Shown piece after piece: positions 2,046-20,096 of a stretch of 64,000 nt of DNA. Under the pieces are notes generated by a model. That model had not been told where the DNA came from, did not search any database, and saw only the letters and a program-made list of their open reading frames with translations. Each line of letters starts with the position of its first letter. The first letter of the stretch is position 1. The translations under genes and the position numbers were made by a program. Origin of the DNA: a bacterium (lineage in GTDB: Bacteria > Patescibacteriota > Doudnabacteria > UBA920); the NCBI GenBank assembly GCA_016699995.1, contig CP064996.1, positions 528,584-592,583 of the forward strand, read 5' to 3'.

Positions 2046-3891
2046 TGAAATCAAAGATCACTTCAGAACCTACGGTTTCAACTGGCAAGACAGTGTTCCG
2101 ATCTTGAGTTCAAATCCTAAACTCCTGTTCAATATTTCAGGCGGTGTAATATTCGAAAGCACGATCTCTGATGGAGTGACCCCAGAGAAAGCCCGTGTCG
2201 TTTCGGTGCAAACCTGCCTCAGAACTGATGGCTGGGAAAAGATAGGATACTCAGGACGGCATCATCTGGCATTCGACATGCTAGGCCACTTTTCCCTATA
2301 CGAAGACAAAGAAGACAAGGTGAAAGGTGTGATGATAGAAAGTGCTTGGAACTATTTGACCCAACGTCTGGGCATTAATCCGGGCCTCTTATCGGCAACC
2401 GTTCATCCGCAAGACACAACATCGCAAAAATTTGGAAAAAATTTCGGTGTAAAGACTGCCGCTAACGATGGCAATGTCACTTACACTCCGACCAGAAACA
2501 GATGCGGCGTCCGCACGGGAGATTGTCTGGCAAAATCCGCATACGAATAAATCAATCGAACTCTGGAACTTGGTTTTTACCCAGTTTGAGGGAGATGCTC
2601 TATTCAAATCTCCGTTGGAAACAATCGCTGCCGATTCTGGAGCCAGTATTGATCGCATCGTCACTGCAATCGAATGTAGCCGAAGCGATTATGAAAACTC
2701 CAACTGGAAAGGCATAGTCGAATCAATCACTGAGCGATCCAAAGTTCAAGATCAAGCCATCATGTGTCGCTTAGCCGATCTAGGTAAAGCATCAACGCTG
2801 CTAGTATCTCAAGGGCTTAGACCTGGAAACAAAGCAGCTGAATACGTTCTTCGGAAACTCATCCGAGAGGCTTACATTCTCTGTCGGCAAACCTCGATTC
2901 AATTCGATGAGTTTGCTGCGATATCAGAAAGTCATTGGTCTCCGTCCGCTGCGGTTCAAACCGTACTTATCGAAGAAGTGTCAAAGTTCGAGAAAGGTCT
3001 CGAACGTGGGAAAAGAGAATATCAAAACTCATATCCCGCAAGACAATTCCCTTGTCGAATCGGATATAAAATATCTAGCATCTACGTTCGGCTTTCCAAA
3101 AGCTTTAATCGAACTCGAGGAATCGAAACGAAAGGAGGCGAAATGAAAAATCTCGTTTCCGAACTTGCTCGCATTCTGCGTGAACTACAAGGCTTACAAG
3201 TGCTAGTACATGTCGGATTGAAAAGAGATTCTTCTAAGGACAAAGTCGATCTCTTAGCGGGCTGTGATCAGGGAAGGATTGAAACATATTCCCCCTCATT
3301 GATTCCCTCCTAAGAAAACGATGGCCCGTTGGGAACTTCTCCGTTTGTGACGACAGTGTTCGCGGACCTATCATCAGGTACGGGCGGCATTGCAGTATGC
3401 GATGCTAGTCTGCTTATCGAGCAGGTTCAAGAATGGATAGAAGGCAAAAATTGGGCGGACAACACCGCTCCTGGGCAACTGGATATTGGTTGCCGGAGGC
3501 GTTATGTGGAGACTTGGCAACGGCAGAAACCCTATATGACAAGACTGGCATCAATGATAAATTAAAAAAACTACTTGTTCCCTATCCAGCTTCGCTCTCG
3601 AAATTTATCAGTGAGCTATGCATAGACGAGATCAGGCAAAAACAATCGACATTCAAAATGCTGCACGAAAATGCAACAATCGAACGTCAGCTATGCCTCT
3701 CGGATATCTCGGCTTCGTTGGTGAGACTTGCATTCGCTCGCAGCCACCAATACCTTCGCGGATTCCGCTCACTTGAGAAACAAGCGAAACTGCTTGAGTT
3801 TTCAGATCTGCCTATTTATGGGCTTGCCTTGGAGATTTCAAAGGGCACAAGAGTAAAATCGATGATGAAAAGAATTGAGGAACTACTCTAA
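2032..3891 (+). pseudogene. divergent alanyl-tRNA synthetase-like gene (catalytic + tRNA-recognition region), disrupted by >=2 frameshifts and with degenerate motif 2
   Basis: ORF 2032..2550 has AlaRS N-terminal signatures: LLF, VQTCLR (cf. SQRCVR) and GYSGRHHLAFDMLGHFS (cf. GYTARHHTFFEMLGNFS). ORF 2468..3313 has IELWNLVFTQF (cf. EIWNIVFMQF), a motif-3-like DSGASIDRIV, and RPGNKAAEYVLRKLIREA (cf. PSNEGRGYVLRRIIRRA). ORF 3433..3891 has AETLYDKTGI (cf. AFRLYDTYGFP). The frames are 1, 2, 1. The GPCGPC of motif 2 is replaced by LTLRPETD. Confidence 0.7.
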
Positions 3892-4530
3892 TTATAGAGG
3901 TATACGAAAGTGTGCCTCTTTTTTTATTCAACAAGGGTCTTTTTCCATTTTCAATAAAAATAGCCTGCGAGTTATTTATTCTCTCAACACAGACCTTGTA
4001 TTTTTCTTCAAAAGCTTTTGCTTGTTCCTCAATATCTGAAGAATAGTGCGGTAATACGATAAGGTTTGTGATCCCAAGCCCTGTATAATCTTCGAGACCA
4101 ACCTCGTTTTTATCTGCAGAAACTTCTCCGGCAATTTCGATTGATGGACCAACAATAATACTTCCTGCGCTGACGCCTATATATATCCCATTTCGATCTA
4201 GCAGGCTTTCGATTGATGTCTTAAAGTTTGATTTTCGAGCAAATTTAAGAAGTTTGAAAGTATTACCCCGCAAACATAGATAATAGCGTATTGAGTAAAA
4301 TCCCTATCGGGTTCGGTTTCAAGGTCTATAAAATCAATATGCGAGAACCCCATCTCCACAAATTGTTCCTTGGCGAGTTGAGCGTATTTATTATTTTCTT
4401 TTTCTTCTGCAGCTGTCGTGACTATAGCAACGGAATAATTAATATAATTTAAAAATGAGCCCTTAAACCTTTTGATAACCGGCTCGGAAGAAAATCCAGT
4501 TGATGTTAGAAATATAAAACCTTTAACCAT
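3812..4530 (-). pseudogene. pepE: peptidase S51 (dipeptidase E / PepE-like), frameshifted at a G-homopolymer
   Basis: N-terminal ORF 4198..4530 ends ...AIIYVCGV. C-terminal ORF 3812..4273 reads GNTFKLLK...IYIGVSAGSII (GxSAG serine nucleophile motif). The junction falls in the conserved GGGNT, where the sequence has tgcggggtaat. One more G would restore the frame. Confidence 0.65.
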
Positions 4531-4559
4531 GGCTTCATTTTACATGATTTTTGTAATTT

Positions 4560-4603
4560 TTAAAAAAAGACCTGCCTCGTGGTTTACACAAAGCAGGTCT
4601 GGG
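4560..4603 (-). terminator. rho-independent terminator downstream of the alaS-paralog
   Basis: Minus strand reads cagacctgc-(loop)-gcaggtct followed by ttttttt. Lies 8-50 nt after the stop at 4611. Confidence 0.6.
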
Positions 4604-4610
4604 TATTTTA

Positions 4611-5903
4611 TCACTTCTTAGGTCGGCGTGATACGTTCCGATGATCCTCGATAAGTTTAAGAAACTCCACCTTCGGAAAAGTTATGTCATGACGCTCACA
4701 AAATTCTTCCAGGAGGTCCTCGGGAATACCTATACCGGTTTTTAACGTGAATGCTTGATGTGCATCCAATTCTTTCGCCGCGACGATTTTGTCGAGATAC
4801 TTTCCACTGCGATTCATCAACTTTTCAAAACTGACCCGTTCTTCGCTGATCCAATGTGCGATAACAGATTTGTGACGAAAAGTTAAATCCTTGTTATCAA
4901 TCACTTGGCTAAGAGAATCCACCCACTCTTGGAGAATAGTCAGATCAATTCCTCGTAGAAAGATGCCTATCATCGCTCGCCGTAACGCGCGACGGAGAAG
5001 GTATCCCTCCCCAGTATTGCTCGGAATGATACCCTCGCGAATCATCAAAATCGAAGTTTTGACATGGTCAAGGATAATCCTCGTCCATGGCATGTCGCCA
5101 ATTCGCTGGTTAATAAGAAGGTAAGACGATTCATATTGGTCGATCTCATGAATCGAAGCGCGGTCTTGCAGGATCATGGCAAAACGCTCAAGACCTGCAC
5201 CTGTGTCTACACACTTCATCGGGAGCTGGGAGAAATTCTGTTGTTCATCCTTGAAGTATTGCATGAACACCCCGGCATTCCAGATTTCGATGTGTCGCCC
5301 AGGCACCAACATATCATCCGTCTCCTCCTCAGCAAATTCCTCGCCACGATCAAAGAAGACTTCCGTGCAAGGACCGCATGGGCCGCTGGTTCCCGCCGGA
5401 CCCCAAAAATTATCTACTGGTGGCCTACCAATGATTCGATCCCGCGGCAGGAATTTCTCCCAGATTCGAGCAGATTCTTCGTCGTCCGGAATACCTGGGA
5501 GACTGTCGTCAGCAACGAATACTGTGGCATAGAGACGGCCAGCTGGAATACCAAACCCTTCGGTAATGAGCTCAAAAGCAAATTCGATGGCTCGCTCTTT
5601 GAAGTAGTCCCCGAAAGACCAAGAACCCATCATACGGAAGCTAGTCCCGTGATAGGAATCACCAATGCTTTCGACATCGACAAATCGGATGCAATCCTGC
5701 ACATTGGTCAGACGTGGATAGGGCGGTTTAACTTGGCCAGTAAAATAAGGCTTAAGCGGGGCCATACCAGAGTTAATAAACATAAGGGTCGGGTCATTCT
5801 CGGGGATGATACCCGATTGCTTGATAAGCCGGTGATCACGCTTGAGAAAATAGTCCAGAAAAGTCTGGCGCACCTCCTCAGTGGTCTTAGATGGCAATTT
5901 CAT
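4611..5903 (-). CDS. alanyl-tRNA synthetase paralog, catalytic/aminoacylation domain only (430 aa; no editing or C-Ala domain)
   Basis: Full class-II AlaRS core: ENDPTLMFINSGM, VQDCIRFVDVESIGDSYHGTSFRMMGSWSFGDYF, motif 2 GPAGTSGPCGPCTEVFFD, IEIWNAGVFMQYF, motif 3 DTGAGLERFAMIL, YLLRRALRRA. Stops after the tRNA-recognition region. Own RBS (ggag) and own terminator. The start overlaps the AKR stop by 17 nt. Confidence 0.8.
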   Translation of the reverse strand: MKLPSKTTEEVRQTFLDYFLKRDHRLIKQSGIIPENDPTLMFINSGMAPLKPYFTGQVKPPYPRLTNVQDCIRFVDVESIGDSYHGTSFRMMGSWSFGDYFKERAIEFAFELITEGFGIPAGRLYATVFVADDSLPGIPDDEESARIWEKFLPRDRIIGRPPVDNFWGPAGTSGPCGPCTEVFFDRGEEFAEEETDDMLVPGRHIEIWNAGVFMQYFKDEQQNFSQLPMKCVDTGAGLERFAMILQDRASIHEIDQYESSYLLINQRIGDMPWTRIILDHVKTSILMIREGIIPSNTGEGYLLRRALRRAMIGIFLRGIDLTILQEWVDSLSQVIDNKDLTFRHKSVIAHWISEERVSFEKLMNRSGKYLDKIVAAKELDAHQAFTLKTGIGIPEDLLEEFCERHDITFPKVEFLKLIEDHRNVSRRPKK

Positions 5904-8129: not shown

Positions 8130-9842
8130 TTATTTTTGGGCTTCGACCGGCGGTGCAGGGGTTTCGACGGGTGCGGTGGCTGACTGAGGAGCCAATTCTT
8201 GAGCTAAATCGAGCGTAGAGGCCTTTAAATCGCTCTTAATTGGGAGGGAAAAGGCAAAGGTGGAACCCAAGCCTGGCCCGTCGCTTTCGGCCCAAATTTT
8301 GCCATTGTGCTGCTCGATGATAACTTTTGCCACATACATGCCCAAGCCCAGCCCGGTAGCATGGGTGGCCGAGTCTTTCCCGCGGGAATATTTGTTAAAG
8401 ACGTTTTCGAGCTCGCTCTTTTCGATGCCTTTGCCGGTATCCTTAACGCGTACGGTAATATTTTTGTCATCGGCTTCGATACCGATTTGAATATCCCCTA
8501 CTTTGGAATATTTAATGGCGTTGTCTATCATGTTATTCACAACCTGCCGAACTTTTTCGTGATCCACGATTATATCGGGAATAGGCATCTTTGGCGGAGT
8601 GTAAACCAAGTGCTGCTTCTTCATTTGAGCAAGCGGTTCGAGCTGCTCTACCAACACCTTCACCATCGGCTCCAGATTGAAGTTCTCAAAGAAGAATTCT
8701 AACTTGCCGCGCTCGATGCGAGAAGCATTAAGAAGATCGTCGATGGTAGAGATCTGTGCTTCGTTGGTAACGTTGGTACGGCTAAGGGCGGCTTTAAGTT
8801 CTTCGCTGAGCGGGCCGAAATCGCCATTAAGTACCGCTCCTAAATACCACTTAATGGTTGCAGGAGGCGTGCGCAACTGATGACTAGCGATGGAGATGAA
8901 CTCTGCACGAGCTTTGTCCAGCGCTTTGAGCTGTTCATTAGCGGCAGCGAGCTCTTTAGATAATACTTCTAACTCTTCGCGCTGTTTGACTTCGCGGATG
9001 ACGGAACGGACCAGGAGGATGCCAACACTAAGCACCAATAAAAAGATGCTCGAACGAACAATGATCGCTAAAATATCATCGGAAACAATTACTTCGAACA
9101 GAGTTGCAATAGCTAGTACGAATACCAATACTTCTGTAGATACAACTTTTACATTTAGCAAATGATGTTTGAATATCGCATAAGCGGCTGCAAACGCGAA
9201 GGGAAAAACAAAGACCGCGCTTAACGGAATGAAAGATGTATTGTTAAGCACGGTAGGAAAAATAAAATTGAGCACGATAATACAGGCGAACATTACGATA
9301 ATGCCGCCCATGAGATTCCATAACGGTTTTCTTTCTACTGATGTCGCTCTATTTATTTTCTTTGCCAGGCTAACAATTCCGCCGATCACCATAGCCACAG
9401 CAAAAGCGCCAAAGAACATTATTCCAGGCTCTACCACTGGCTGAGCAACACTTCCAGGAGTAAAAATAATGGAAGAAAATACAAAGGGTGTTAACGTAAA
9501 CATCGCCACCACAAATGCGACGATTAAAAGAATATAGTACCTCTTAGGGCTTATTTGTAATTTTTCACTCGGAAAATTGTATAGCAGCAACAAAAGTGTT
9601 AGAGATTGAAACACAGCAAAAAACAAAACCAGCCTAATAATCCATAGGGCCAATACTGGATTACTGACTTGATAATTTAAGTAATTAACGATACTCCAAG
9701 CGCTGCTGGTAAGACTAAAAAGCAAAAAGAAAATATTGGTAGCGCTCCTTGTGTTTTGGAAAAAGACAATAAATCCCAAAATGGTCACTGCTGCAACAGA
9801 AACGCCAACGGATATTAAATCTGCGTTTAAAAAAATATTCAT
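8130..9842 (-). CDS. sensor histidine kinase with N-terminal multi-TM sensor domain, 570 aa
   Basis: H-box SIASHQLRTPPATI. HATPase_c blocks DNAIKYS, VKDTGKGIEKSELENVF, GLGLGMYVAKVI. About 8 TM helices at the N-terminus. Confidence 0.85.
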   Translation of the reverse strand: MNIFLNADLISVGVSVAAVTILGFIVFFQNTRSATNIFFLLFSLTSSAWSIVNYLNYQVSNPVLALWIIRLVLFFAVFQSLTLLLLLYNFPSEKLQISPKRYYILLIVAFVVAMFTLTPFVFSSIIFTPGSVAQPVVEPGIMFFGAFAVAMVIGGIVSLAKKINRATSVERKPLWNLMGGIIVMFACIIVLNFIFPTVLNNTSFIPLSAVFVFPFAFAAAYAIFKHHLLNVKVVSTEVLVFVLAIATLFEVIVSDDILAIIVRSSIFLLVLSVGILLVRSVIREVKQREELEVLSKELAAANEQLKALDKARAEFISIASHQLRTPPATIKWYLGAVLNGDFGPLSEELKAALSRTNVTNEAQISTIDDLLNASRIERGKLEFFFENFNLEPMVKVLVEQLEPLAQMKKQHLVYTPPKMPIPDIIVDHEKVRQVVNNMIDNAIKYSKVGDIQIGIEADDKNITVRVKDTGKGIEKSELENVFNKYSRGKDSATHATGLGLGMYVAKVIIEQHNGKIWAESDGPGLGSTFAFSLPIKSDLKASTLDLAQELAPQSATAPVETPAPPVEAQK

Positions 9843-10855
9843 ACCCTAACTATAACCTTATCCAAATCTATTCTAGGACTAAAATGAGGCATATCTGGAC
9901 CATAACCGATTCTAAAAAACATTTGAGGTCTCGTACTGATGCCTAAAGCTTGTTTAACCAATTTATAATTATCTCCTATTTCGATAGGTGCGCCCATTAT
10001 TCCAATTCTTAAACCTAAACCCTCCGCTTTTAAAGCTATTTTCTCGAAAGACATACCTGCCTTAACCCAAGCGCTTTCGTTATCTTCTACAGTACTGATA
10101 ACACCATACACTGGTGCATTCTTAAGCCACTCTTCGTGCATCTTGGCTTGAAAGTTTTGCAAGTTAAAATTTCTAATTGCAAATGGTAATAGGTAAGAAA
10201 TTAATTTTGGCACGCCGATCGTGTAGCCAGGCATACCGTCCCGATACTTAACAGAACTTGGCTTTACCCAAGCTGATAATTCGGTAGTAAACTTCTTATC
10301 TGCAAAAGCTTCTTTAACCGATTTAGAAACAATATCTCTAATGGACTGTTTCTGATTTTCTTGGCTCACAAAAGTTGAAACTATTCCCTCTAAGCACTCA
10401 GCAGCCATTTCATCCAATATGGATTGGTCTATTCGTCTGTCTTCAAGAGGCAGTCGGTTAGTTTTACGGTTTACCAGATTATCAAAAGCTTTCTGATCGA
10501 TTGAAGATGATGCTAGAGATTGATAATAAATTGTAAAAATAGTGTTCTTATCAAAATCGAAATTATACTCTGCATCATACTTCAAGCCTAAAGAATCTGA
10601 TCCGTGCAGTAAATTCTGGATCGCTGCGCCGATGCTCAGAAAAAGCTGGCGGTTATTTTCGTCGGAATAAGGTAATTTTCGATCGAAGTTTGCTTTGACA
10701 GTTATTGTTTTATCTCGAATCTCAAAAAGCCATGGTTGAGTATTATGGCTCGAGGGTGCTAAAGATGCTAATAGAACCAAAAAATCCAATCTTGCAGAAT
10801 CTGTTTGTAATTGGTCGTATTTTTCTATTTTTATTTCTGTACGAGGATTGTACAT
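9839..10855 (-). CDS. nitroreductase-family protein (tandem/extended nitroreductase fold), 338 aa
   Basis: SSHNTQPW (SxHNxQPW nitroreductase signature) near the N-terminus. Start overlaps the HK stop (ATGA-type coupling). Confidence 0.6.
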   Translation of the reverse strand: MYNPRTEIKIEKYDQLQTDSARLDFLVLLASLAPSSHNTQPWLFEIRDKTITVKANFDRKLPYSDENNRQLFLSIGAAIQNLLHGSDSLGLKYDAEYNFDFDKNTIFTIYYQSLASSSIDQKAFDNLVNRKTNRLPLEDRRIDQSILDEMAAECLEGIVSTFVSQENQKQSIRDIVSKSVKEAFADKKFTTELSAWVKPSSVKYRDGMPGYTIGVPKLISYLLPFAIRNFNLQNFQAKMHEEWLKNAPVYGVISTVEDNESAWVKAGMSFEKIALKAEGLGLRIGIMGAPIEIGDNYKLVKQALGISTRPQMFFRIGYGPDMPHFSPRIDLDKVIVRV

Positions 10856-10880
10856 TTAATTTATTATACCACAAAATTGG

Positions 10881-10904
10881 AAAAACCGGCCGGGCCGGTT
10901 TTGT
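10881..10904 (-). terminator. rho-independent terminator right after the ammonia-lyase remnant stop
   Basis: Minus strand: aaaaccggcccggccggttttt plus T-run. Confidence 0.6.
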
Positions 10905-11180
10905 TTAATTCTGAATTAAATCCTTTTTTAGTTTTTCAATCTCTTTGTATATCAAAGCGTCGTCAGCATAGAAAGGAACCTTTGATCTCACATATTCATA
11001 AGTTTCAGCATTGCCTTTACCAGCCTTTAATGGACTTCGCAATTCAACAGCCTGGGCAGCTGCCGCTAACTCGACTACCAAAATTTCAAATGCCATGTTT
11101 ATAATGTCTCTGCATTTTCGAGCAGCGGTCGTCGCGAAGCTTACGTAGTCTTCCTGGTTAGCAGAAGTAGGGATAGAAAC
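10905..11180 (-). pseudogene. hutH: C-terminal remnant (~90 codons) of an aromatic amino-acid (histidine/phenylalanine) ammonia-lyase; 5' part missing
   Basis: Minus-strand frame reads IPTSANQEDYVSFATTAARKCRDIINMAFEILVVELAAAAQAVELR..., matching the HAL/PAL C-terminus (SIPTSANQEDHVSMG..AARK; AIELLAAAQALD). The frame opens at a stop immediately adjacent to the res gene end at 11180. Confidence 0.6.
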
Positions 11181-13780
11181 TATTCAAGATCATCCAATTC
11201 TTCTAATAAATTTTCTAATTCACACCTAAATTTTTCTTGGCCTTTTAATATTCTCCCATCCTTCAAATACTCAAAAAATGTAGAATATCCTTCTGGACTC
11301 AAGAAATGAAAAATGTATTTTTGTTTAATTTTATTTTCCTCTAATTTATTGTTCAACCTCTCAAAATGTTCTTTCGCATATTTGTATTTTGCCTTGTTTT
11401 CATCGCTGTCGTCTTTGTCCGCTTTTATCTCAACAACAACAAAATAATCTACATTATCTTTTGTGATCTTGATAAAGAAGTCAGGATTAAACATCCCAAT
11501 CTTTTGGTGATTTGATGGTCTCCATGAATACTCAATGCCATAAAATCCACGATCCCGAGATTTTAACCACGCATCAATTTTCTCCGCAATATCCTTTTTG
11601 CAAAGGTTCTCGATGAATCTTCGTTCTGGTTCTGCGTTAGAAAAAACAACATTGACGGGGGTCTTAAACAAAAACTCATTTTGTTCCTTGTCGGCACTCT
11701 TGGGGAAACTCTCATCTTCTTTGAGCTTCTGCATTATGTTTCGTTGTTCATCGTCAAAGATCTCATTCTCCCAGTTGTTTGTGTAGAATAATGAATATCC
11801 ACGCCTAAAATTACCAACACCAGAACTTTCGCGGATGATATTTTTTGTAGAAATAACAACGGGTTCATTTACTTTTAATTGTGGCACAACTGTCTTGCTC
11901 TTTTTTCGCAGAAGTGTAGCAAAGGTATTGAGAATCTTATTGACATTTTTTTCGATGATTTGATCACCCTTAATACCAACGTTTTTCATGGATTTGAGAA
12001 TGATCTCTCGGATTTTTTCTTTCGGTGGGAGGTTATTTTGTGTGTACTGCTCTTCCCCGAGTTTCAATATTCTTCCTTCCCAATCTCTAATCTCAAATTC
12101 CTCATAGATTCTGTCCACCACTTCTTGAACAGTCCAAGTTCCGTATTCAATAACATAATTCTTCTCCCGAATATCTTTCGCAGTTATTGATTCATAAGAG
12201 GTGCCTTTTTCTGTTTGTATCACTTGAGAATCCAATTTGATACCTTCTTTTTCAATACGAGAATAATTAACAACTGGATTGGGTTTGTGTTCTACTTCCA
12301 CTTCTTCTTTGGTGTAATCAAGATTGTAAACATCAAAATGATATTTTGATCGGTCATCATTCTTAACAATCTCACTGATTATTCGAGTTTCGATTTCCAA
12401 CACTTCATCAACAAGAGCTTTTATACCTCTGCTCCATGCGTCATGGTTAAAAACAATGATTTTTGGTTGAGGAGTTGTATATGCCTCTGGTAAACGCAAA
12501 CCGCGCCCCAATACTTGTGCGATAAGAAGTTTAGAATTAAACGCCTTATCTTCCCATGGAACGATTTGAAAAACGTTTTTAACATCCCAACCTTCTGTAA
12601 GCATCGAGACAGAAACAATCCATTCAGTCGGATTTTCTCTATGATCAACTGTTTTCAATTTTGATAAATTGCCTTTATGATCCTTATGAGAAGTAACAAT
12701 CAAAACTTTTTCTTCAATACTTTCACGAGGTCGCCCCTCTCTCTTTTCAAGGAAATCAAGCAAATCTTCCATTAAACTTTTTGCCTTGGAAATATCTTTA
12801 GTGATCAAAATTGAAAGAGGTTTGATTTTTGGGTACTTATCAATATTCTCCTTGTGGTTTTGATATATTTTTTGGAACTTTTCATCAGTCCCCGAACTGT
12901 CATCTTTTTGTACATATTCAATATTCTTTACTATTCTATCTTCAATGGCTTCGCGCAAAGAATAGCGATAAATAACATCGTTAAAGTACTCGTTGTCATG
13001 ATACGCTGTACCAGTAAAACCAAGAATGTAACGAAAGTTGAAATCTAGATTTAATAAAAACTCCTTCCACCGCTTCAAACCTTGCGCTTCTGTTGTATTG
13101 CCAGATATTTTATTAAAAATATGGTGAGATTCATCATTAAGCACTAAAACGCGCTCGCCTTGTCTTTGGAAACTATCCTTAATCGATGACCCAGTTGTTT
13201 CATAAACTGCATGGATATTTTCAACACAAATACTTCCGTTTTTGACAGTGATATTTGCATCAACAATGCTTGGGTTTTTATAAAGAGCATTCGCTGGTAT
13301 CGATTTTTTGATTCGTGCATTCCCACTCAAATCCTCAAACTTCTCCAACAGTCCGTCTTCAATCGTCAAAGATGGGCAGAGTACCAAAACTTTATCTACC
13401 AAGCCTAACCCAAGCATGATTTGTGCCACACCATAAATTACATACGATTTTCCTGTACCAGTCGCTAAATCAATGTTTGCAAAAAGTTTATTAGGTAGCT
13501 GTAAATGGTGATGGTAATCGCTAAGGGTCGGATACTTTTCTTGCAGTTCGGGATTTTTATTGTAATTCTCATGTACTAAATCCTCAGTAGTAACATAACG
13601 CCCAGATGCAAGAAAGATAACCGCGTGTTTTATTGCTTCCTTTTGGTATTCTCTGTCTACACACAAGGTATCCAAAAAAGAATCCCATGCGCCCAAATCT
13701 AACTTTGTCGGATCATAGTTTTGATTCACTTTTAGAACCAAGTCTTTTTGTTTGTAAGTTTTAATATCCTGCATAGTCAT
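11180..13780 (-). CDS. res: Type III restriction endonuclease Res subunit (SF2 helicase + C-terminal PD-(D/E)xK nuclease), 866 aa
   Basis: Walker A LATGTGKSYVIYGV. DEAH-like VLNDESHHI. Helicase C motifs. C-terminal DFFIKITKDNVDYFVVVEIKADKDD nuclease-like motif. About 33% GC. Confidence 0.85.
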   Translation of the reverse strand: MTMQDIKTYKQKDLVLKVNQNYDPTKLDLGAWDSFLDTLCVDREYQKEAIKHAVIFLASGRYVTTEDLVHENYNKNPELQEKYPTLSDYHHHLQLPNKLFANIDLATGTGKSYVIYGVAQIMLGLGLVDKVLVLCPSLTIEDGLLEKFEDLSGNARIKKSIPANALYKNPSIVDANITVKNGSICVENIHAVYETTGSSIKDSFQRQGERVLVLNDESHHIFNKISGNTTEAQGLKRWKEFLLNLDFNFRYILGFTGTAYHDNEYFNDVIYRYSLREAIEDRIVKNIEYVQKDDSSGTDEKFQKIYQNHKENIDKYPKIKPLSILITKDISKAKSLMEDLLDFLEKREGRPRESIEEKVLIVTSHKDHKGNLSKLKTVDHRENPTEWIVSVSMLTEGWDVKNVFQIVPWEDKAFNSKLLIAQVLGRGLRLPEAYTTPQPKIIVFNHDAWSRGIKALVDEVLEIETRIISEIVKNDDRSKYHFDVYNLDYTKEEVEVEHKPNPVVNYSRIEKEGIKLDSQVIQTEKGTSYESITAKDIREKNYVIEYGTWTVQEVVDRIYEEFEIRDWEGRILKLGEEQYTQNNLPPKEKIREIILKSMKNVGIKGDQIIEKNVNKILNTFATLLRKKSKTVVPQLKVNEPVVISTKNIIRESSGVGNFRRGYSLFYTNNWENEIFDDEQRNIMQKLKEDESFPKSADKEQNEFLFKTPVNVVFSNAEPERRFIENLCKKDIAEKIDAWLKSRDRGFYGIEYSWRPSNHQKIGMFNPDFFIKITKDNVDYFVVVEIKADKDDSDENKAKYKYAKEHFERLNNKLEENKIKQKYIFHFLSPEGYSTFFEYLKDGRILKGQEKFRCELENLLEELDDLE

Positions 13781-13783
13781 ATT

Positions 13784-15748
13784 TTATACGGTGAAAATTT
13801 CAGCAAAGTCATTACCGTAAACATCAGTATAAATCACCATTATTTGCTTTCCCAATTCAGATTTTTTGAACGAAATTTCTAAACCCTTCTTCTCTATTTT
13901 CTTAAGTTCTGATTTTATATCCTCGTCATCGTCTTCTTTTTTATTTGCTTTCTTTGGCAAAAGTTCATCAGCAAAAAAAGCGTCATCCATTTCGAATGCT
14001 TTTCCATTGTAGCTTTTATCAACAAAGACAGCAGATAGGGTTTCGAAATTTTTCATCCCTTTCTCGTCTTGTGATTTGTCGGATTCAAGTTCTTGGCTAG
14101 TAAAACTCTTAATTAAGATTTTTACTCTATCCTTGTCTTTCTTTATTTCCGACTTTACTTCGGGATGTCGAATAAAGTGGAAACCAATCGCTTCTTCCAA
14201 ATCGTTCACATTCTTTTTACTTTGCGGTTGTCGCAATTTTAGGAATGGTGTTTTGTGGAGCTCTTTAATTACATGATATGGAATCTTGAGGAAGTAGTAT
14301 TTTACCCCGTCAATTTCATGGTAGTTAGAGAGAAAATCAACAAAGTTTGCTGGGGCAATAATATACACGCGACCACTTGCTTTCTTTCCGACAACTGCAT
14401 GTACATCTTTCAGATATTTTTCGTTAATTGTAGAGTTTTTGAAAGTTTGATAATCAAAAATCTTTACTGGGAAATCGCCTTTCATACCCTCAAATTCAAA
14501 CCCCGCAATTTTGTTTTTCTTGATTTCCACTTCAAAAAGCCCAGAGACAAACTCTTGATATTTTTGCCATTCCAAATCAAGTGCTCTTTTTAGATCATAG
14601 ATACCGAGTTGAGCAGTAACAAAACTTTTTGATTTCTTCCCGTACTTTTTATTTTGATCTTCTAAATCCTTTGAATTTTCAATTTGCAAAATGCGCTTTT
14701 GCATTGTGAAATAGGAAAGCTTACCTAGGTCACATGTAATCCATTTTCGTCCTAACTTTTCGGCTATATAAGCGGTTGCGCCAGAACCACCAAAAAAATC
14801 CATCACAATATCGCCTTCAACTGAAGCCGCTTTGATTATTCTCTCGATAAACTTATTTGGCTTCTCTGTCGGGTATCCAGTTCTTTCAACACCGTCTACT
14901 CTCAAACGAGCGGCGACTGAAAACTCCCACCAATCTTCTGGAACTTTTCCCTTTTTTCTTAATTCCTCCAAATCTTCCTCATCCCATCCTTCACCATCAT
15001 CAAAAGCAGTACGAAATGATTGATTAGGGTCTTTGTAAGGAACCCTGATCTGATCTTTGTTAAAAGTCCATTTATCCGATTTTGAGTACCAAAAAATCGT
15101 ATCGTGTTTCCTATTAAATTGCTTCATTTTAGGCGATCCTGGGCCTGTATATACCCAAATAATTTCATTCACAAGATGAAGTTCGCCGAATATCTCATCC
15201 AGTGCCAATTTTATGTAATGAGATTTTTTGTAATCGAGGTGGACAAATATACTTCCATCATCTGCCAATATTTCTTGTGCTAAAATAAGTCTACGTCGCA
15301 AAAACTCAACAAATTCTGCACCTTTCTTTTTGTCATTGTAAGCTTTTGCTCCTTCTTTGTTTAAGAAATCATCGGTAGTCGCAAAAGGTGGATCTATATA
15401 AATAAGCTTTACTTTTCCTTTCACCTTATCTTTTATCAGAGGGTCCTTATTTTCGTAAATGGTTTTAAGGAATTGCAGATTATCACCGAACACGATCATA
15501 TTTTTCCATCCATCCTTAAACGATTCGTATTCATTGCCATTGAAAACTTTTTCAGTTTGAAGAGGGACAGGGAAAACACCATCCTCATTTGCAAGCAAAT
15601 CTTCTTTTCGCATCTTCCCAGCATATACCAACTCATACTCTTTTTGAGTTGTTGGGAAAAGCAAGTATTTAAAATCGAATGGAATTTCTCTCCCGTCTTG
15701 TAGTGTTTTAACTAAAAATTCTGTATCAAATTTAGTGAGTTTTTTCAT
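13784..15748 (-). CDS. mod: Type III RM Mod subunit, N6-adenine (beta-class) DNA methyltransferase, 654 aa
   Basis: Motif IV IYIDPPFAT (DPPF/Y). Motif I VMDFFGGSGATAYIAEKLGRKWI. Immediately upstream of res, on the same strand. AT-rich. Confidence 0.85.
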   Translation of the reverse strand: MKKLTKFDTEFLVKTLQDGREIPFDFKYLLFPTTQKEYELVYAGKMRKEDLLANEDGVFPVPLQTEKVFNGNEYESFKDGWKNMIVFGDNLQFLKTIYENKDPLIKDKVKGKVKLIYIDPPFATTDDFLNKEGAKAYNDKKKGAEFVEFLRRRLILAQEILADDGSIFVHLDYKKSHYIKLALDEIFGELHLVNEIIWVYTGPGSPKMKQFNRKHDTIFWYSKSDKWTFNKDQIRVPYKDPNQSFRTAFDDGEGWDEEDLEELRKKGKVPEDWWEFSVAARLRVDGVERTGYPTEKPNKFIERIIKAASVEGDIVMDFFGGSGATAYIAEKLGRKWITCDLGKLSYFTMQKRILQIENSKDLEDQNKKYGKKSKSFVTAQLGIYDLKRALDLEWQKYQEFVSGLFEVEIKKNKIAGFEFEGMKGDFPVKIFDYQTFKNSTINEKYLKDVHAVVGKKASGRVYIIAPANFVDFLSNYHEIDGVKYYFLKIPYHVIKELHKTPFLKLRQPQSKKNVNDLEEAIGFHFIRHPEVKSEIKKDKDRVKILIKSFTSQELESDKSQDEKGMKNFETLSAVFVDKSYNGKAFEMDDAFFADELLPKKANKKEDDDEDIKSELKKIEKKGLEISFKKSELGKQIMVIYTDVYGNDFAEIFTV

Positions 15749-16279
15749 ATAAATTCTATTTGAGTCCCAAAAAAGTTAATCGAGATAAGTGAAACCATTT
15801 TACCATAAATCACACCTTAAATAAAGGGTTTTAGAGTGACCAAACCATCATTCGGCGTCATTAATCCGTTGCTCGCAAATGCAGAACATACTAAACTGAC
15901 ACCTGACGAGTTTAAAACAACTAAGAAAGTGAGATGCTGTTCTCTGCTCCCCCTAAATCGACAGAACAAGATGAACCGGAAGCTTTTTCTATCTATTCCG
16001 AAATAAGGGAAATGATGAATATGACATATAGGAAAAGCCTACATACCGAGAGATTGTAGAGAATTCATTCAGCAAAGAACTCCCGTGCCATTGAATATTA
16101 TCTGTTTCGCAGGAAGAAGCCCCAAAAACAGCTCGGCAACCTTGGGATTACTTTAGCTTCCACACACCGAATCCTTCTTTTAATTTATGATAATAGCACG
16201 TATATTAATACAGTGAAATTTGGCTCTCACGAGGAATAGCTTGTACAAACCATTTTTAATATAATTTTAATTTAATTTC

Positions 16280-17494
16280 CTACATCCCCATCATCTTAAT
16301 CAGACCATCCCGCTTCTTAGTCTCTGCCTTACTTGGCGGCAAAAAGGCACTATCTAGGTTAAAGTCCGTTCTGCCCGACTTTACGTTTTCCCCTAAAATA
16401 ATCTTGCGCGCTAAATATGTAAGCACGCTGCCGCACAAGTTAGCGGCATTACCCAGTTGCGGCCAAGAATAAATAGTCTTCCCTACCTGCATTACCGACT
16501 CTATCATGCGCACTGTGCTCATTTCTGCACCGGCCATCTTGGCAATTACCCGAGGCAAGTCTTGCGGGTGCACTTTGCTAAATTCCTGCGCCGTCATCTT
16601 GCCTAATATACCGTGCAGAATAGGATACTTTTTGTTTTGGTCGTAACGCTCGACGTCTACGATAATGCTGTCGGCGTTATCGGCGGCCATAATTACGGGA
16701 ATACCAAGTGGACGAGCTAATTCGCGGGCGCGCATCTTAAAGTACGGCTGATCCATTTCTTCTACCAACACATCCAGCTTTGCGGTACCTTTTAAGAACT
16801 TTGGCAAATTTTCTTTGGTTAAGCCATCAGCAAACAACTCTACTTTAGCATACGGATTCATTTCGTAAATCTGCCTAGCTACTGCTACAACCTTGGGTAC
16901 TTCTATATTTACAAACCCGGTACGAATGCGGTTCATGTTAGAGGCCGAAAGCACGTCTAAATCGGCCAACTTAATGTGCCTAGCGCCGCCCGTCATGGCG
17001 ATGGTTAGCGCCACATGGCTGCCTACACTCATGCCTAAAATACCGATTACCGAGTTGTAAAACTTCTTTTGTTCGCTGGCAGTAATTAAATTGCGGTTGC
17101 GGCCGGTGCGCACCTCTTGGTGCATAGCGTCCGGTAAAAAATGAATCACAGTGTGGAGCCAAGGATAGTAAAACCAATTGCCGCTAGTCACGTACTTGTC
17201 GCCCGAGCCGTTTTTGGCGGCAAACTGCTTAAACTCGCCGTGATAGTCTTTGTCGAACCTGTACTTAGGGTTGCGCAGCAAAAACACTTCTTCCAACTGG
17301 ATGGCATACTGGTCGATAACTTTTACCGGACGACGATCTGGCTTTACTCCGTTAGGCAGTTTAAGGCGGCGAATTTGCGCTTCGAAGTTCTTCCGCGCGT
17401 CTAGCTTTACCGGCTTAAACGAACTGCGGTCGAAATTGTCTTTGATTATGATTTTTTTTGCCATAGTTTTATAAACGGCGCCGCAACAGCGCAA
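16280..17494 (-). CDS. ThiF/MoeB/E1-like adenylyltransferase-fold protein with ~130-aa N-terminal extension, 404 aa
   Basis: GILGMSVGSHVALTIAMTGGARHIKLADLDVLSASNMNRI is the classic E1 Rossmann GxGxxG plus the D.D.V..SNLNRQ-like block. Confidence 0.7.
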   Translation of the reverse strand: MRCCGAVYKTMAKKIIIKDNFDRSSFKPVKLDARKNFEAQIRRLKLPNGVKPDRRPVKVIDQYAIQLEEVFLLRNPKYRFDKDYHGEFKQFAAKNGSGDKYVTSGNWFYYPWLHTVIHFLPDAMHQEVRTGRNRNLITASEQKKFYNSVIGILGMSVGSHVALTIAMTGGARHIKLADLDVLSASNMNRIRTGFVNIEVPKVVAVARQIYEMNPYAKVELFADGLTKENLPKFLKGTAKLDVLVEEMDQPYFKMRARELARPLGIPVIMAADNADSIIVDVERYDQNKKYPILHGILGKMTAQEFSKVHPQDLPRVIAKMAGAEMSTVRMIESVMQVGKTIYSWPQLGNAANLCGSVLTYLARKIILGENVKSGRTDFNLDSAFLPPSKAETKKRDGLIKMMGM

Positions 17495-17499
17495 ATTAA

Positions 17500-19047
17500 T
17501 TATTTAATAGTCCACTTTTGCTTGCCGCCCCCTGCAAAGTGAGGCGCGCTTTGGTGTTGCCACAGCTTTACCACCGGCACCATCTTCTTGCTAAAGTTAG
17601 AGTGCAGCACGCGATACTCAGAATTCTTTTTTAACAGCACCTTTATTAACGTATCGCGCAGTGTAGCAATAAACTTCTTAGACAGCTTCGCTCCGGGCTT
17701 AAGTTCGGTATTAACCTCTAATACCGGATTATGCTTTTTGTCGTAAGTGATGCGCATGGCAAACTTGCCAGTCGTATGTTTATTTGTTGCTTTTGTTAAA
17801 TGCGCCTCGCGCACATGCTCCGGGTAAATATTGCCGCCGTACCAGCTCACCACCATATCGCTGCGCTCGTATACGTACACAAACGGCAAATTCCAAACGG
17901 TGTCTTTCAATTTTGCCGTCCTAATCTCTTTATCCAAATCAATGCCGCAGTCTTTAGCTTTGGCCATCACCTCCTTGGCGCTCATTATTCCGCCGCGGTC
18001 CTTGAGGTCATACCTAAACAAGGGCAGGCCGCTAAAAGCCGAGCAGTACAAATTTCCATTGTCGTTTTCGAAATAAAACAGCTCCGGCAAGTATTGCGTT
18101 AGTGTGGGTTGCCTTTCCAAAGCAGCGTCATTTTCGGCAATGCCAGAGAATAACTTAGCTTTAAACTTTTTATTCTTATTGCTTAGTCTGCGCACCAAAA
18201 TCGACAGCGGGGTTTCGTGAGAGTGAGTCCCCTGGTCCACAGTGCCGTAATGATTAAGCGTGGAAGTATAGATATTTTTTAGGCCAGCTTGTTTGGCCAC
18301 ATAGTCGCGAAATGCTTCGGTAAAACCTTCGGCCGAAAAAATTATTCCTAAATTATATTTCTTCCAGTTCAAGCCTTCGCTTAACCCTTGGTCGATGGTG
18401 TCTTTAACAAAGGGAGGATAGCCACCCAAAATAACCTGGTCGTATTTATCGCCTAACTGGCGCATAGCCTTAATGATCTCCTTGCTATTTACGCCTGGAG
18501 TAATAATGCTGATGTCGTAGCCTTTTTGCTGCAAAATCTGTACGGCTTCGTAAGTGAACAGGCCGCCGATCCACGCGCCCATAGCAAACCCGTCAATGTA
18601 TAAAGTGGACTTCTTGTGGATCTGAAAGTTGTTGCGCAAGTACAGCTCAGCGGTTAACGCATACTGCCGGCTCTGCTCATGCGTGCGCGGAAAATAAAAC
18701 GGTTCGCCGGTGGTGCCGGAAGTGGCGGCATAAACGCTCTGCTGTTTGCTTAACACGCCGTCCCAGCACAGCTGCTTAAGCGGATACTTGCGCAGGTAGT
18801 TGTTCTTGTCGATGGTCGGAACCAAAGCAAAATCCGCCGCGCTCTTTATCTTTGCAGGGTTCACTTTGTGCTTTTTTAAAAAGTCCTTGTACGCCGGAAC
18901 CCTCTTGGCCATTTCGTGGAACAGCTTGAGAGCGCGCTGCTCTCCCCGCTTCTGCCAGAAACTTTCCGGCTTGGTCTTTAAGTTCTTTTCTAAGGATGTA
19001 ATATTAGCGGTCTGCAATGATTTGGGAAATGAAAGCTCGTTCTTCAT
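17500..19047 (-). CDS. adenylate-forming ligase of the phenylacetate-CoA ligase (PaaK)/CapK/coenzyme F390 synthetase family, 515 aa
   Basis: P-loop-like YAATSGTTGEPFYFPRT (SGTTGxP). The size and N-terminal motif arrangement are typical of PaaK-like ANL enzymes. Confidence 0.65.
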   Translation of the reverse strand: MKNELSFPKSLQTANITSLEKNLKTKPESFWQKRGEQRALKLFHEMAKRVPAYKDFLKKHKVNPAKIKSAADFALVPTIDKNNYLRKYPLKQLCWDGVLSKQQSVYAATSGTTGEPFYFPRTHEQSRQYALTAELYLRNNFQIHKKSTLYIDGFAMGAWIGGLFTYEAVQILQQKGYDISIITPGVNSKEIIKAMRQLGDKYDQVILGGYPPFVKDTIDQGLSEGLNWKKYNLGIIFSAEGFTEAFRDYVAKQAGLKNIYTSTLNHYGTVDQGTHSHETPLSILVRRLSNKNKKFKAKLFSGIAENDAALERQPTLTQYLPELFYFENDNGNLYCSAFSGLPLFRYDLKDRGGIMSAKEVMAKAKDCGIDLDKEIRTAKLKDTVWNLPFVYVYERSDMVVSWYGGNIYPEHVREAHLTKATNKHTTGKFAMRITYDKKHNPVLEVNTELKPGAKLSKKFIATLRDTLIKVLLKKNSEYRVLHSNFSKKMVPVVKLWQHQSAPHFAGGGKQKWTIK

Positions 19048-19049
19048 AA

Positions 19050-20096
19050 CTAGCGGCCGTTAAAGATTTCTTCTGCCATTTCGTCGGCAATAATATTGGT
19101 GGCGCGGTTCATAGTCTGGCTGCGGCTAAAAATCTCTTTAAGGATCACGACAATGTTGTTTAAGCGGGTCTTAACGCGGGCGCTGTTAAACTGCTTATGC
19201 TCGTACTCATCCACTACAGAAATTAAGCCGCCCGAATTAACCACGTAATCCGGCGCATACATAATGCCCAACGAGTGCAGCAATTCGCCCACAGAACGGT
19301 CCTGCAGCTGGTTGTTGGCGCCGCCGCAAATAATCGGCGCCTTAAGCTTGGTAATAGTCTGCGAAGTCAAAGAGTTACTCAATGCGCAGGGAGAGAATAC
19401 ATCTACATCCGCTTTATAAATAGCGGTCGGCGAAACGACTTCGACCTTTGGGTACTTCTTTTTTATCTCTTTTAAACGAACGCTATCTACATCCGTAATA
19501 ACAATGCGGCCGGCTTTTTTATACAAAATATGCAGCAAGGCTTCGCCGATCTTGCCCACGCCCTGAATAGCAAACGAGCGCTTCTTTAAATCTTTGTTGC
19601 CAAAGCGGGCTTGCACGCAAAACTCAATAGCCTTAAACAAGCCTTGGGCGGTGTACAGCACCGGATTGCTGCGTACTCCGACAATGAACTCGCTATTGGC
19701 GTGCATGATCTTTAAGTCGGAATTGGTTACGCCTACATCGGCTCCAGTTACAAAGTGGCCAGCAAAATAATTAACAGCTTCGGTATAGGAAGCAATGATC
19801 TTCTCCCTATCGGCTTTATTTACACCGGCCGGTAGCAAAATTACACCCTTGCCGCCGCCGTAGTCCAAGCCGGCCATAGCGGCTTTATAAGACATCAAGC
19901 GAGATAAGCGCAAGGCGTCGCGCAAGGCGTCCTCTTTATTGGCATATCTGGCAATACGGGTCGCGCCAAAGCTAGGGCTAGTTAAGCTGCCCCGGTGCAA
20001 GGCGATATAAGCTTCTAATTTGGTTTTTTTGTCGACAGCGAAAGATACCAGCTTATGATTATCAAACTCTTCTAAAATCTCGATATTTACGCTCAT
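19050..20096 (-). CDS. Glu/Leu/Phe/Val-type amino-acid dehydrogenase (leucine/phenylalanine dehydrogenase-like), 348 aa
   Basis: Catalytic GLDYGGGKGVI motif. NAD-binding GVGKIGEALLHIL. Stop is 3 nt from the ligase start. Confidence 0.8.
   Translation of the reverse strand: MSVNIEILEEFDNHKLVSFAVDKKTKLEAYIALHRGSLTSPSFGATRIARYANKEDALRDALRLSRLMSYKAAMAGLDYGGGKGVILLPAGVNKADREKIIASYTEAVNYFAGHFVTGADVGVTNSDLKIMHANSEFIVGVRSNPVLYTAQGLFKAIEFCVQARFGNKDLKKRSFAIQGVGKIGEALLHILYKKAGRIVITDVDSVRLKEIKKKYPKVEVVSPTAIYKADVDVFSPCALSNSLTSQTITKLKAPIICGGANNQLQDRSVGELLHSLGIMYAPDYVVNSGGLISVVDEYEHKQFNSARVKTRLNNIVVILKEIFSRSQTMNRATNIIADEMAEEIFNGR

Follow-up and report, generated by a model that had tools for sequence, protein, structure and literature searches.

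In the 64,000-nucleotide stretch of contig CP064996.1 analysed here (assembly GCA_016699995.1, from a member of the Candidate Phyla Radiation (CPR); hereafter the window), the mod-res gene pair of a Type III-like restriction-modification (RM) system has very probably taken the place of everything that once lay between the 3' flank of a ThiF-like gene and codon 410 of hutH, the gene encoding histidine ammonia-lyase (HAL). The travelling pair would have arrived together with a part of a serine recombinase gene, and the tail of hutH would persist beyond res as a dead remnant. An earlier note, made from the sequence alone, had proposed that the RM genes replaced most of the lyase gene, and this proposal is supported by the occurrence of an intact hutH in RM-free relatives, whose homology to the window starts at position 11183, at the end of res.

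Immediately 3' of res, the minus strand contains 92 codons (11183-10908; translation IVSIPTSANQEDYVSFATTAARKCRDIINMAFEILVVELAAAAQAVELR...KDLIQN*, with the stop codon at 10907-10905) in which the C-terminus of a HAL/PAL-family ammonia-lyase had already been recognized. The assignment is confirmed by the Pfam profile PF00221 (Lyase_aromatic), which matches over its positions 401-465 of 466 (E 1.5e-15, 57.3 bits for a cut-off of 27.3), and by the NCBIfam histidine ammonia-lyase profile NF006871 (E 9.8e-24; 83.9 bits, far under the full-length cut-off of 524). With respect to the known hutH family (TIGR01225), the counterpart of the remnant in the P. putida HAL (PDB code 1gk2, a chain of 509 residues) is formed by residues 406-489, the SxPTSANQED motif being part of this alignment. 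In contrast to a complete hutH, 18% of the gene is left in the window, and the catalytic region containing the MIO-forming Ala-Ser-Gly (ASG) triad, which a lyase of full length (about 500 amino acids) possesses, has been deleted. The lyase frame indeed opens at the res stop codon, as previously claimed: closed upstream by a TGA at 11186-11184, it begins at 11183 with an ATA codon instead of an ATG and overlaps the res TAG at 11182-11180, and it thus lacks a translation start of its own. The first internal ATG occurs 29 codons further and leaves an open reading frame (ORF) of 63 amino acids (10905-11096). Searches of the 64 kb by tblastn, using six full-length HALs together with those of the relatives, detected no further lyase sequence, all other matches having E > 0.3. 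Judged from its sequence, the window holds a gene remnant and not a functional member of the lyase family.

The source record names the remnant a 92-amino-acid "aromatic amino acid lyase" with a non-ATG start, and the returned name gives no sign of a pseudogene. This annotation has to be corrected to that of a gene fragment, and the entry offers no basis for crediting the genome with a histidine ammonia-lyase activity; the 64 kb of the window are the visible part of the genome, and a second hutH located beyond them is possible.

The orthologous gene was located by searching with the nitroreductase encoded downstream of the remnant, and not with the lyase fragment itself. Using the remnant as a query, an exhaustive protein search returned no relative above 51% identity, a metagenome scan gave a best match of 55-57% to the full-length HAL of locus L013, a word-indexed protein search yielded three hits without the orthologue among them, and an exact-sequence look-up of the annotated 92-amino-acid protein gave no match. 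The closest relatives by nitroreductase identity (72-74%) are the loci L093, L094 and L102, L094 belonging to the MAG GCA_041910175.1. Both L093 and L094 exhibit the gene order SLOG, a 502-amino-acid Lyase_aromatic gene, nitroreductase, kinase, YjbQ and mechanosensitive-channel gene, and in L102 the same lyase lies directly upstream of the same genes, cut by the contig end at 390 amino acids; RM genes are absent from the hutH position in all three. The L094 hutH scores above the NCBIfam hutH equivalog cut-off (602 vs. 539 bits), and the ASG triad occurs at residue 147 of the L093 and L094 lyases.

The alignment with RM-free relatives, proposed by the earlier note as a check, places the right junction at 11183, or at 11178 when L093 is used. 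By blastn, window positions 11183-6827 align with L094 3234-7576 (78.6% identity), positions 11178-6793 with L093 (77.3%) and positions 11183-8295 with L102 (77.7%; 8295 corresponds to the L102 contig end), the collinear nucleotide homology to L093 and L094 thus spanning about 4.4 kb from the junction. Position 3234 of L094 corresponds to codon 411 of the 502-codon hutH. At the protein level, the remnant is 86.7% identical by tblastn to residues 411-500 of the L094 HAL and 77% identical to the L093 HAL, and when the last 92 residues are compared without gaps, the identity amounts to 86% with L102 and 85% with L094. The SLOG gene found upstream of hutH in the relatives is not present in the window, and searches for the hutH 5' part, SLOG and AstE found none of them anywhere in the 64 kb. 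In L093, L094 and L013, hutH adjoins this SLOG/LOG-like gene (LDcluster4), which is borne by the opposite strand in L013. The lyases of the clade also read NQEDYVSF where the P. putida HAL reads NQEDHVSM; the sequence SIPTSANQEDYVSF occurs in the lyases of L093, L094, L102 and L013, the corresponding sequence of the P. putida HAL being SLPTSANQEDHVSM.

Compared with the L094 hutH, the remnant shows a pN of 0.08 and a pS of 0.54, i.e., a dN/dS of about 0.09, without any internal stop codon or frameshift, the dN/dS of the neighbouring intact genes ranging from 0.03 to 0.09. Because of this low dN/dS and the open frame, most of the divergence of the remnant must have accrued under selection, and therefore the truncation would be recent when compared with the split from L094. 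The remnant departs at two positions from residues that the four intact relatives all share (D412V, and P to A in LKPG), a number too low to test for relaxed constraint. The same values might be read in favour of a functional small gene, of 92 codons or of 63 codons when initiated at the ATG, that is kept for its product: its frame remains open over 92 codons, its dN/dS is low, and the source record, by annotating a protein, implicitly assumes a function. This is highly unlikely, as a recent truncation would give a low dN/dS too, the product would lack the ASG triad together with about 80% of the fold, the frame begins at an ATA overlapping the res stop, and both D412V and the LKPG change affect invariant residues. 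Moreover, the conserved standalone gene of some 90 codons in relatives, which the earlier note had set as the outcome contradicting its proposal, was not found: the genes of the close relatives are all of full length, and the other matches, at most 57% identical, are full-length genes or fragments at contig ends.

The right junction can be resolved to the base pair by a three-way comparison. The window reads ...GATGATCTTGAATAG joined to TTTCTATCCC..., the native res end in L101 reads ...GATGAATAG (...GAATAG), and the L094 hutH reads ...GTTGTGATAGATTCAATCCC... across the same site, with ATAG in the context GTGATAGATTCA. The four nucleotides ATAG, which contain the res stop codon, are thus common to both partners and may have served as a microhomology in the joining.

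Downstream of the remnant, the terminator-like hairpin and its T-run, which had been noticed previously as the terminator belonging to the lyase gene, are kept in L093, L094 and L102, three of its base pairs being changed on both sides. The hairpin is native to hutH and is now the sole terminator-like site downstream of mod-res. The extended -10-like element TGTGGTATAAT and the nitroreductase ATG are invariant in the window and in the same three relatives, and this conservation suggests that TGTGGTATAAT is a promoter element of the nitroreductase gene. A promoter scan returned no more sites than occur in shuffled sequence, and an Rfam scan of 10700-16400 gave no match. The coordinates of all these features are collected in Table 1.

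Table 1. Features of the mod-res locus and its surroundings, numbered from the first nucleotide of the window.
Feature	Coordinates	Strand	Description and basis
Acg/Rv3131-type nitroreductase	9839..10855	-	Pfam, NCBIfam and synteny; directly downstream of hutH in relatives
Extended -10-like element TGTGGTATAAT	10863..10873	-	Upstream of the nitroreductase ATG (10855-10853)
Terminator-like hairpin and T-run	10881..10902	-	Terminator scan; fold of -13 kcal/mol
hutH 3' remnant	10905..11183	-	Codons 411-502 of a 502-codon gene plus stop; profile, tblastn, collinear DNA
Right junction	11180..11183	-	ATAG common to the native res end and the L094 hutH; three-way ungapped comparison
res	11180..13780	-	866 amino acids; SF2-helicase-type restriction subunit; full length relative to homologues of 855-876 amino acids
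mod	13784..15748	-	654 amino acids; N6/N4 DNA methyltransferase
mod central block	14846..15160	-	Left unaligned by blastn against L011, L012 and L097-L101
Stretch between ThiF stop and mod start	15749..16279	.	531 bp, no intact gene; tblastn, blastn
31-nt inverted copy of the hutH remnant	15866..15896	+	27/32 aligned positions vs. 11128-11097, codons about 429-439
Serine recombinase remnant	15952..16092	+	Decayed N-terminal part; tblastn, custom profile hidden Markov model, shuffle controls
ThiF-like E1 enzyme	16280..17494	-	N-terminal half of the Rv1355c family; Pfam, NCBIfam; synteny in L001-L006 and L096

The two genes that occupy the place of the lost hutH part are borne by the same strand, in an operon-like arrangement with mod directly upstream of res (mod stop codon at 13784-13786, res ATG at 13780-13778). 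Mod matches the Pfam N6_N4_Mtase profile (4e-51), the PADLOC MTase_III model PDLC03633 (7e-55) and the EcoP15I Mod of known structure (PDB code 4zcf, 1e-15); its DPPF (motif IV) precedes its FGGSG (motif I), with a variable block in between, which is the order of the beta class. The helicase/ATPase core of Res is readily recognized by the Pfam profiles ResIII (59.1 bits vs. a cut-off of 22.5) and SWI2_SNF2 (36.7 vs. 26.7), and the translation contains the GTGKS and DESHH motifs. Near residue 780, the sequence PDFF...VVEIKADKD was noticed by eye as a candidate for the C-terminal PD-(D/E)xK nuclease motif, the sole profile support being a sub-threshold match to a TnsA-like endonuclease (18.2 vs. 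26.5 bits). PADLOC REase_III gives partial matches to Res.

As in the Type III RM systems EcoP15I and EcoP1I, mod thus lies immediately upstream of res (with a gap of 3 nt here), Mod belongs to the beta class with a central variable domain and matches the EcoP15I Mod, and Res carries SF2 helicase motifs and has homologues named "type III restriction enzyme" by JGI. Unlike the Type III norm, Res finds no solved structure in the PDB matching its sequence at E <= 1e-3 and remains below the curated NCBIfam thresholds for Type III endonucleases (32.9 vs. 564 bits for NF012027; 78.9 vs. 800 bits for NF046055), and therefore "Type III-like" is the safe label for the predicted RM pair. No phase-variable or simple repeat tract was found in mod.

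Homologues of Res at E <= 1e-20 number 5487 and are distributed among many phyla, the best one reaching 94% identity; named sources of Res proteins with 65-72% identity include Thermoanaerobacteraceae, Sulfurimonas, Caminibacter, Treponema, Falkowbacteria and Levybacteria. The same mod-res pair accordingly circulates among very different bacteria, at 65-94% protein identity. The sole viral match, at 61% identity, is located at 2833-5439 of the predicted viral contig L103 (IMG/VR UViG_3300042276_000438). At the DNA level, seven other loci match res and the 3' two-thirds of mod with 82-86% identity, the values for the 5' part of mod being 77-81%. This similarity is confined to the segment from the mod ATG to the res stop, with the exception of 14846-15160, and the contigs are otherwise unrelated. 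The G+C content at third codon positions (GC3) of mod-res is 0.32-0.33, as against 0.49 +/- 0.06 for 19 host genes. The pair is thus foreign to the host genome and widely distributed. The block 14846-15160 is presumably the target-recognition domain, and from the alignments it looks as if this domain had been exchanged relative to the other copies, which would confer a different methylation specificity. Mod consists of 654 amino acids in the window and of 702 or 657 amino acids in the other copies.

The best copies of the pair (94% Res identity) occur in L011 (5674-11879) and L012 (4237-18156), in islands that contain large serine recombinases. Additional methyltransferases, an HNH gene and a gene resembling S24 peptidases/repressors belong to these islands too, both of which adjoin the cell-division genes mraZ-rsmH-ftsI-mur. 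In several copies, mod is directly preceded by a small helix-turn-helix (HTH) gene, which has no counterpart in the window. At 15797-15805, about 50 nt before the mod ATG, TGGTAAAAT was noticed by eye as an extended -10-like sequence similar in form to TGTGGTATAAT, the consensus scan remaining silent at this position.

The two genes flanking the locus represent the two halves of a fused Rv1355c-family protein, the ThiF-like protein corresponding to positions 31-340 and the nitroreductase to positions 369-651 of the model NF005901. The best relatives of the ThiF-like protein occur in metagenome-assembled genomes (MAGs) of Candidatus Saccharibacteria. Genes for both halves are adjacent in distant Saccharibacteria and Bacteroidota, the loci compared with window positions 9839-10855 and 16280-20096 being L003, L004, L006, L007-L009 and L096; in Saccharibacteria they are found alongside p515, a PaaK-like ligase, and p348, a ScyB-like amino-acid dehydrogenase. 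In L003, L004 and L006 the order is p348, p515, ThiF, nitroreductase-like gene and seven-transmembrane (7TM) histidine kinase, followed by YjbQ in L003 and L004, with gaps of 36-115 bp between ThiF and the nitroreductase-like gene, no other gene and no lyase in between. In L096 (56% identity), seven other genes separate ThiF from the nitroreductase. The interval between ThiF and the nitroreductase gene is thus variable in the clade, and hutH occupies its nitroreductase side in the nearest relatives; in the clade of the window, successive insertions have separated the pair. The closest ThiF relative (79% identity) comes from L001, a contig of 2635 bp that ends 6 nt past the ThiF stop codon, where the variable interval begins, and this contig end may be an assembly break due to strain variation.

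The adjacency of ThiF and a nitroreductase-like gene in L003, L004 and L006, without a lyase, together with the GC3 of the tail (0.35), as low as that of mod-res, could suggest that the lyase tail never was resident and came as cargo, brought with mod-res from a donor in which the RM pair lay beside or inside a lyase gene. This was in fact the initial reading, based on the distant relatives with ThiF beside the nitroreductase, and it was dropped when the closest relatives were found. It is very improbable now that an intact hutH is known at exactly the same position in these relatives, whose DNA follows that of the window collinearly through the remnant, the terminator, the promoter and four downstream genes; in addition, none of the seven other RM loci contains lyase sequence after res. 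The composition of the tail has a different explanation. In the RM-free L093, the SLOG-hutH-nitroreductase segment shows a GC3 of 0.30-0.38, compared with 0.51-0.60 in its flanks, and therefore the low GC3 predates the RM genes and points to either an older island of low GC or a segment with a local AT bias, in place before the RM insertion. Over window 8991-11183 and L093 57-3173, and also in L094, the GC3 of the SLOG, hutH and nitroreductase genes that are present ranges from 0.27 to 0.38, and the membrane half of the window kinase reaches 0.39. The idea that the low-GC tract 9250-16250 is one single imported island including the nitroreductase gene was likewise ruled out by the same low GC3 in L093.

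At the other end of the replaced segment, the stretch of some 530 bp upstream of mod had been described as non-coding and devoid of any HAL N-terminus. The second statement stands, tblastn on 15749-16279 with the six HALs and those of the relatives having found nothing. The first one holds insofar as no intact gene is present; the stretch does contain a remnant of a serine recombinase and, in inverted orientation, a short copy taken from the lyase remnant. No remnants of the relatives' hutH, SLOG or AstE, of the L094 163-amino-acid protein, of the genes intervening in L096 or of the HTH genes of the RM copies were found in these 531 bp. The recombinase remnant is detected by tblastn with the L012 and L011 recombinases (32.0 and 30.4 bits at 15955-16083 of the plus strand; 400 shuffles gave a mean of 17.1 and a maximum of 24.6) and by a profile hidden Markov model built from three recombinase N-termini (23.0 bits, E 1.6e-8; maximum of 5.6 in 300 shuffles). 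It reads KSTEQDEPEAFSIYSEIREMMNMTYRKSLHTERL*RIHSAKNS where L012 has KSTEQEDKQALSIESQVKEMITLAEREGLEIVEIKRESHSSK, contains an in-frame stop and has lost its first ~29 codons as well as all that lies beyond about codon 130; a weak similarity may extend to about 16230. A large-serine-recombinase element would possess a complete recombinase, comprising Resolvase, Recombinase and zinc-ribbon domains, and attachment sites at its ends; the window shows about 47 recognizable codons of the N-terminal domain and would hold, at best, the relic of such an element. The remnant is divergent from mod, with the same geometry as in L012, and the RM genes probably arrived in a serine-recombinase-linked element and not as a bare pair. 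The homology of the ThiF 3' flank to L096 stops at 16258, and the left junction would thus be located between about 16092 and 16258. Right after the ThiF stop, where the L096 homology ends, positions 16254-16278 form an AT-rich tandem repeat (TTTTAATATAA x 2.3).

The inverted copy of hutH (local score of 37, against a mean of 21.5 and a maximum of 32 in 500 shuffles; BLAST E of 0.008 vs. the whole window) carries the window's own allele at 5/6 sites, counted by eye, at which the window differs from L094 and L102. It is possibly a templated patch laid down during an illegitimate joining. Since a recombinase remnant lies adjacent to this hutH-like 31-mer and large serine recombinases often integrate inside genes, the element might instead have been inserted into hutH by its serine recombinase, the 31-nt sequence being an attachment site. 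Such a site-specific integration is hardly probable: the hutH sequence 11097-11128 is uninterrupted, with collinearity to the relatives on either side of it, and thus was not the site of a crossover; the actual breakpoint lies 55 nt upstream, at codon 411; the L011 and L012 elements reside beside cell-division genes and contain no such sequence; and the presence of the window's own allele makes the 31-mer look copied from the host and not imported. Little credence can also be given to the more elaborate possibility that the copy is a recognition site, the family of the mod-res element being targeted to hutH by its recombinase and two inverted sites, of which the element and the surviving hutH tail would hold one each, bracketing a mod-res segment that is, or formerly was, invertible. 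Searches near the recombinases of L011 and L012 revealed no hutH-like sequence, and those for direct or inverted terminal repeats around the insert revealed short, chance-level pairs only, apart from the hutH 31-mer.

An assembly artefact, in which a low-GC mod-res segment was mis-joined in the metagenome and the real genome keeps an intact hutH, has to be considered as well, the source being a MAG, the composition of the RM segment being deviant and the L001 contig breaking right after ThiF. This is extremely improbable: two chimeric joins leading back into the same neighbourhood would be needed, ThiF and the nitroreductase gene being neighbours or near-neighbours in the relatives; one of the joins would have had to hit a stop codon precisely, sparing res; and the 64 kb contain no hutH 5' part, SLOG or AstE.

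The replacement of the ThiF-to-hutH segment by mod-res can be pictured as follows. The ancestor would have carried the SLOG-hutH-nitroreductase-kinase arrangement, as the closest sampled relatives do, and the horizontally travelling mod-res would have entered the variable interval between ThiF and the nitroreductase gene, accompanied by a large serine recombinase gene or at least a portion of it. The segment from the ThiF 3' flank to hutH codon 410 would then have been lost, either in the same illegitimate joining or by later deletions, and the surviving foreign segment, from about 16258 to 11180, would comprise the recombinase stump, the promoter region and the intact mod and res. The loss probably went beyond the lyase gene, SLOG being absent too. 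Transcription of mod-res would read through into the hutH terminator, which probably now ends the transcript, and the downstream promoter would still serve the nitroreductase gene. The persistence of the hutH tail is probably due both to the recency of the event and to the fact that the tail carries the terminator and adjoins the nitroreductase promoter. With respect to the tight trimming of the foreign DNA to the ORF boundary, deletions affecting the RM pair may have been counter-selected, those in its flanks being tolerated.

Several points weigh against this interpretation. No relative contig joins ThiF to SLOG-hutH, L093, L094 and L102 all ending before ThiF, and because of this the left side prior to the insertion and the size of the loss are inferred. 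The ATAG overlap could be a coincidence, L093 having ATTG at the site, and a low dN/dS is also expected of a small ORF that is still functional. The recombinase remnant is short, with about 47 well-aligned codons, and the Pfam Resolvase model gives no match to its translation. The 31-nt inverted hutH copy is not predicted by a simple substitution of hutH by mod-res. Finally, the source is a MAG.

The locus offers a case, resolved to the base pair, in which two defence genes have overwritten a metabolic gene of a CPR member. Since CPR genomes are already minimal, each gene loss narrows the abilities of the cell. The locus also suggests that mobile elements can shrink to two genes whose loss the cell may not survive.

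Large serine recombinases are known to move islands and prophages into genes, such as SPbeta in spsM, skin in sigK and A118 in comK. Like these systems, the present locus combines an interrupted host gene with a recombinase gene adjoining the cargo, and the closest mod-res copies reside in islands that bear recombinases. Unlike in SPbeta, skin and A118, the recombinase is reduced to a short, dead stump, the target gene is preserved in one part only, which renders the event irreversible, no attachment sites were identified, and the junction looks illegitimate and not site-specific.

The locus comes closer to the "substitution" of other genes by RM genes, a recognized class that accounts for 116/760 locus pairs (Furuta, Abe & Kobayashi 2010, Nucleic Acids Res 38:2428, PMC2853133). 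As in this class, the RM genes occupy a locus that holds unrelated genes in the relatives, the flank being alignable and the RM region not. The class is defined by at least 1 kb of other sequence in the RM-free genome, to which 1.2 kb of hutH plus SLOG correspond here, and no functional mobility gene is left; as for the flanks, the right one aligns with the relatives over 4.4 kb and is the only one covered by the alignment. The locus differs from the class in that its breakpoint interrupts an ORF and falls on the res stop codon, in that the other end bears the stump of a serine recombinase along with a short copy of the target in inverted orientation, and in that the host has a reduced, Saccharibacteria-like genome. 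It opens no new question and is probably a clean new example of this known class of substitution, not a new kind of event.

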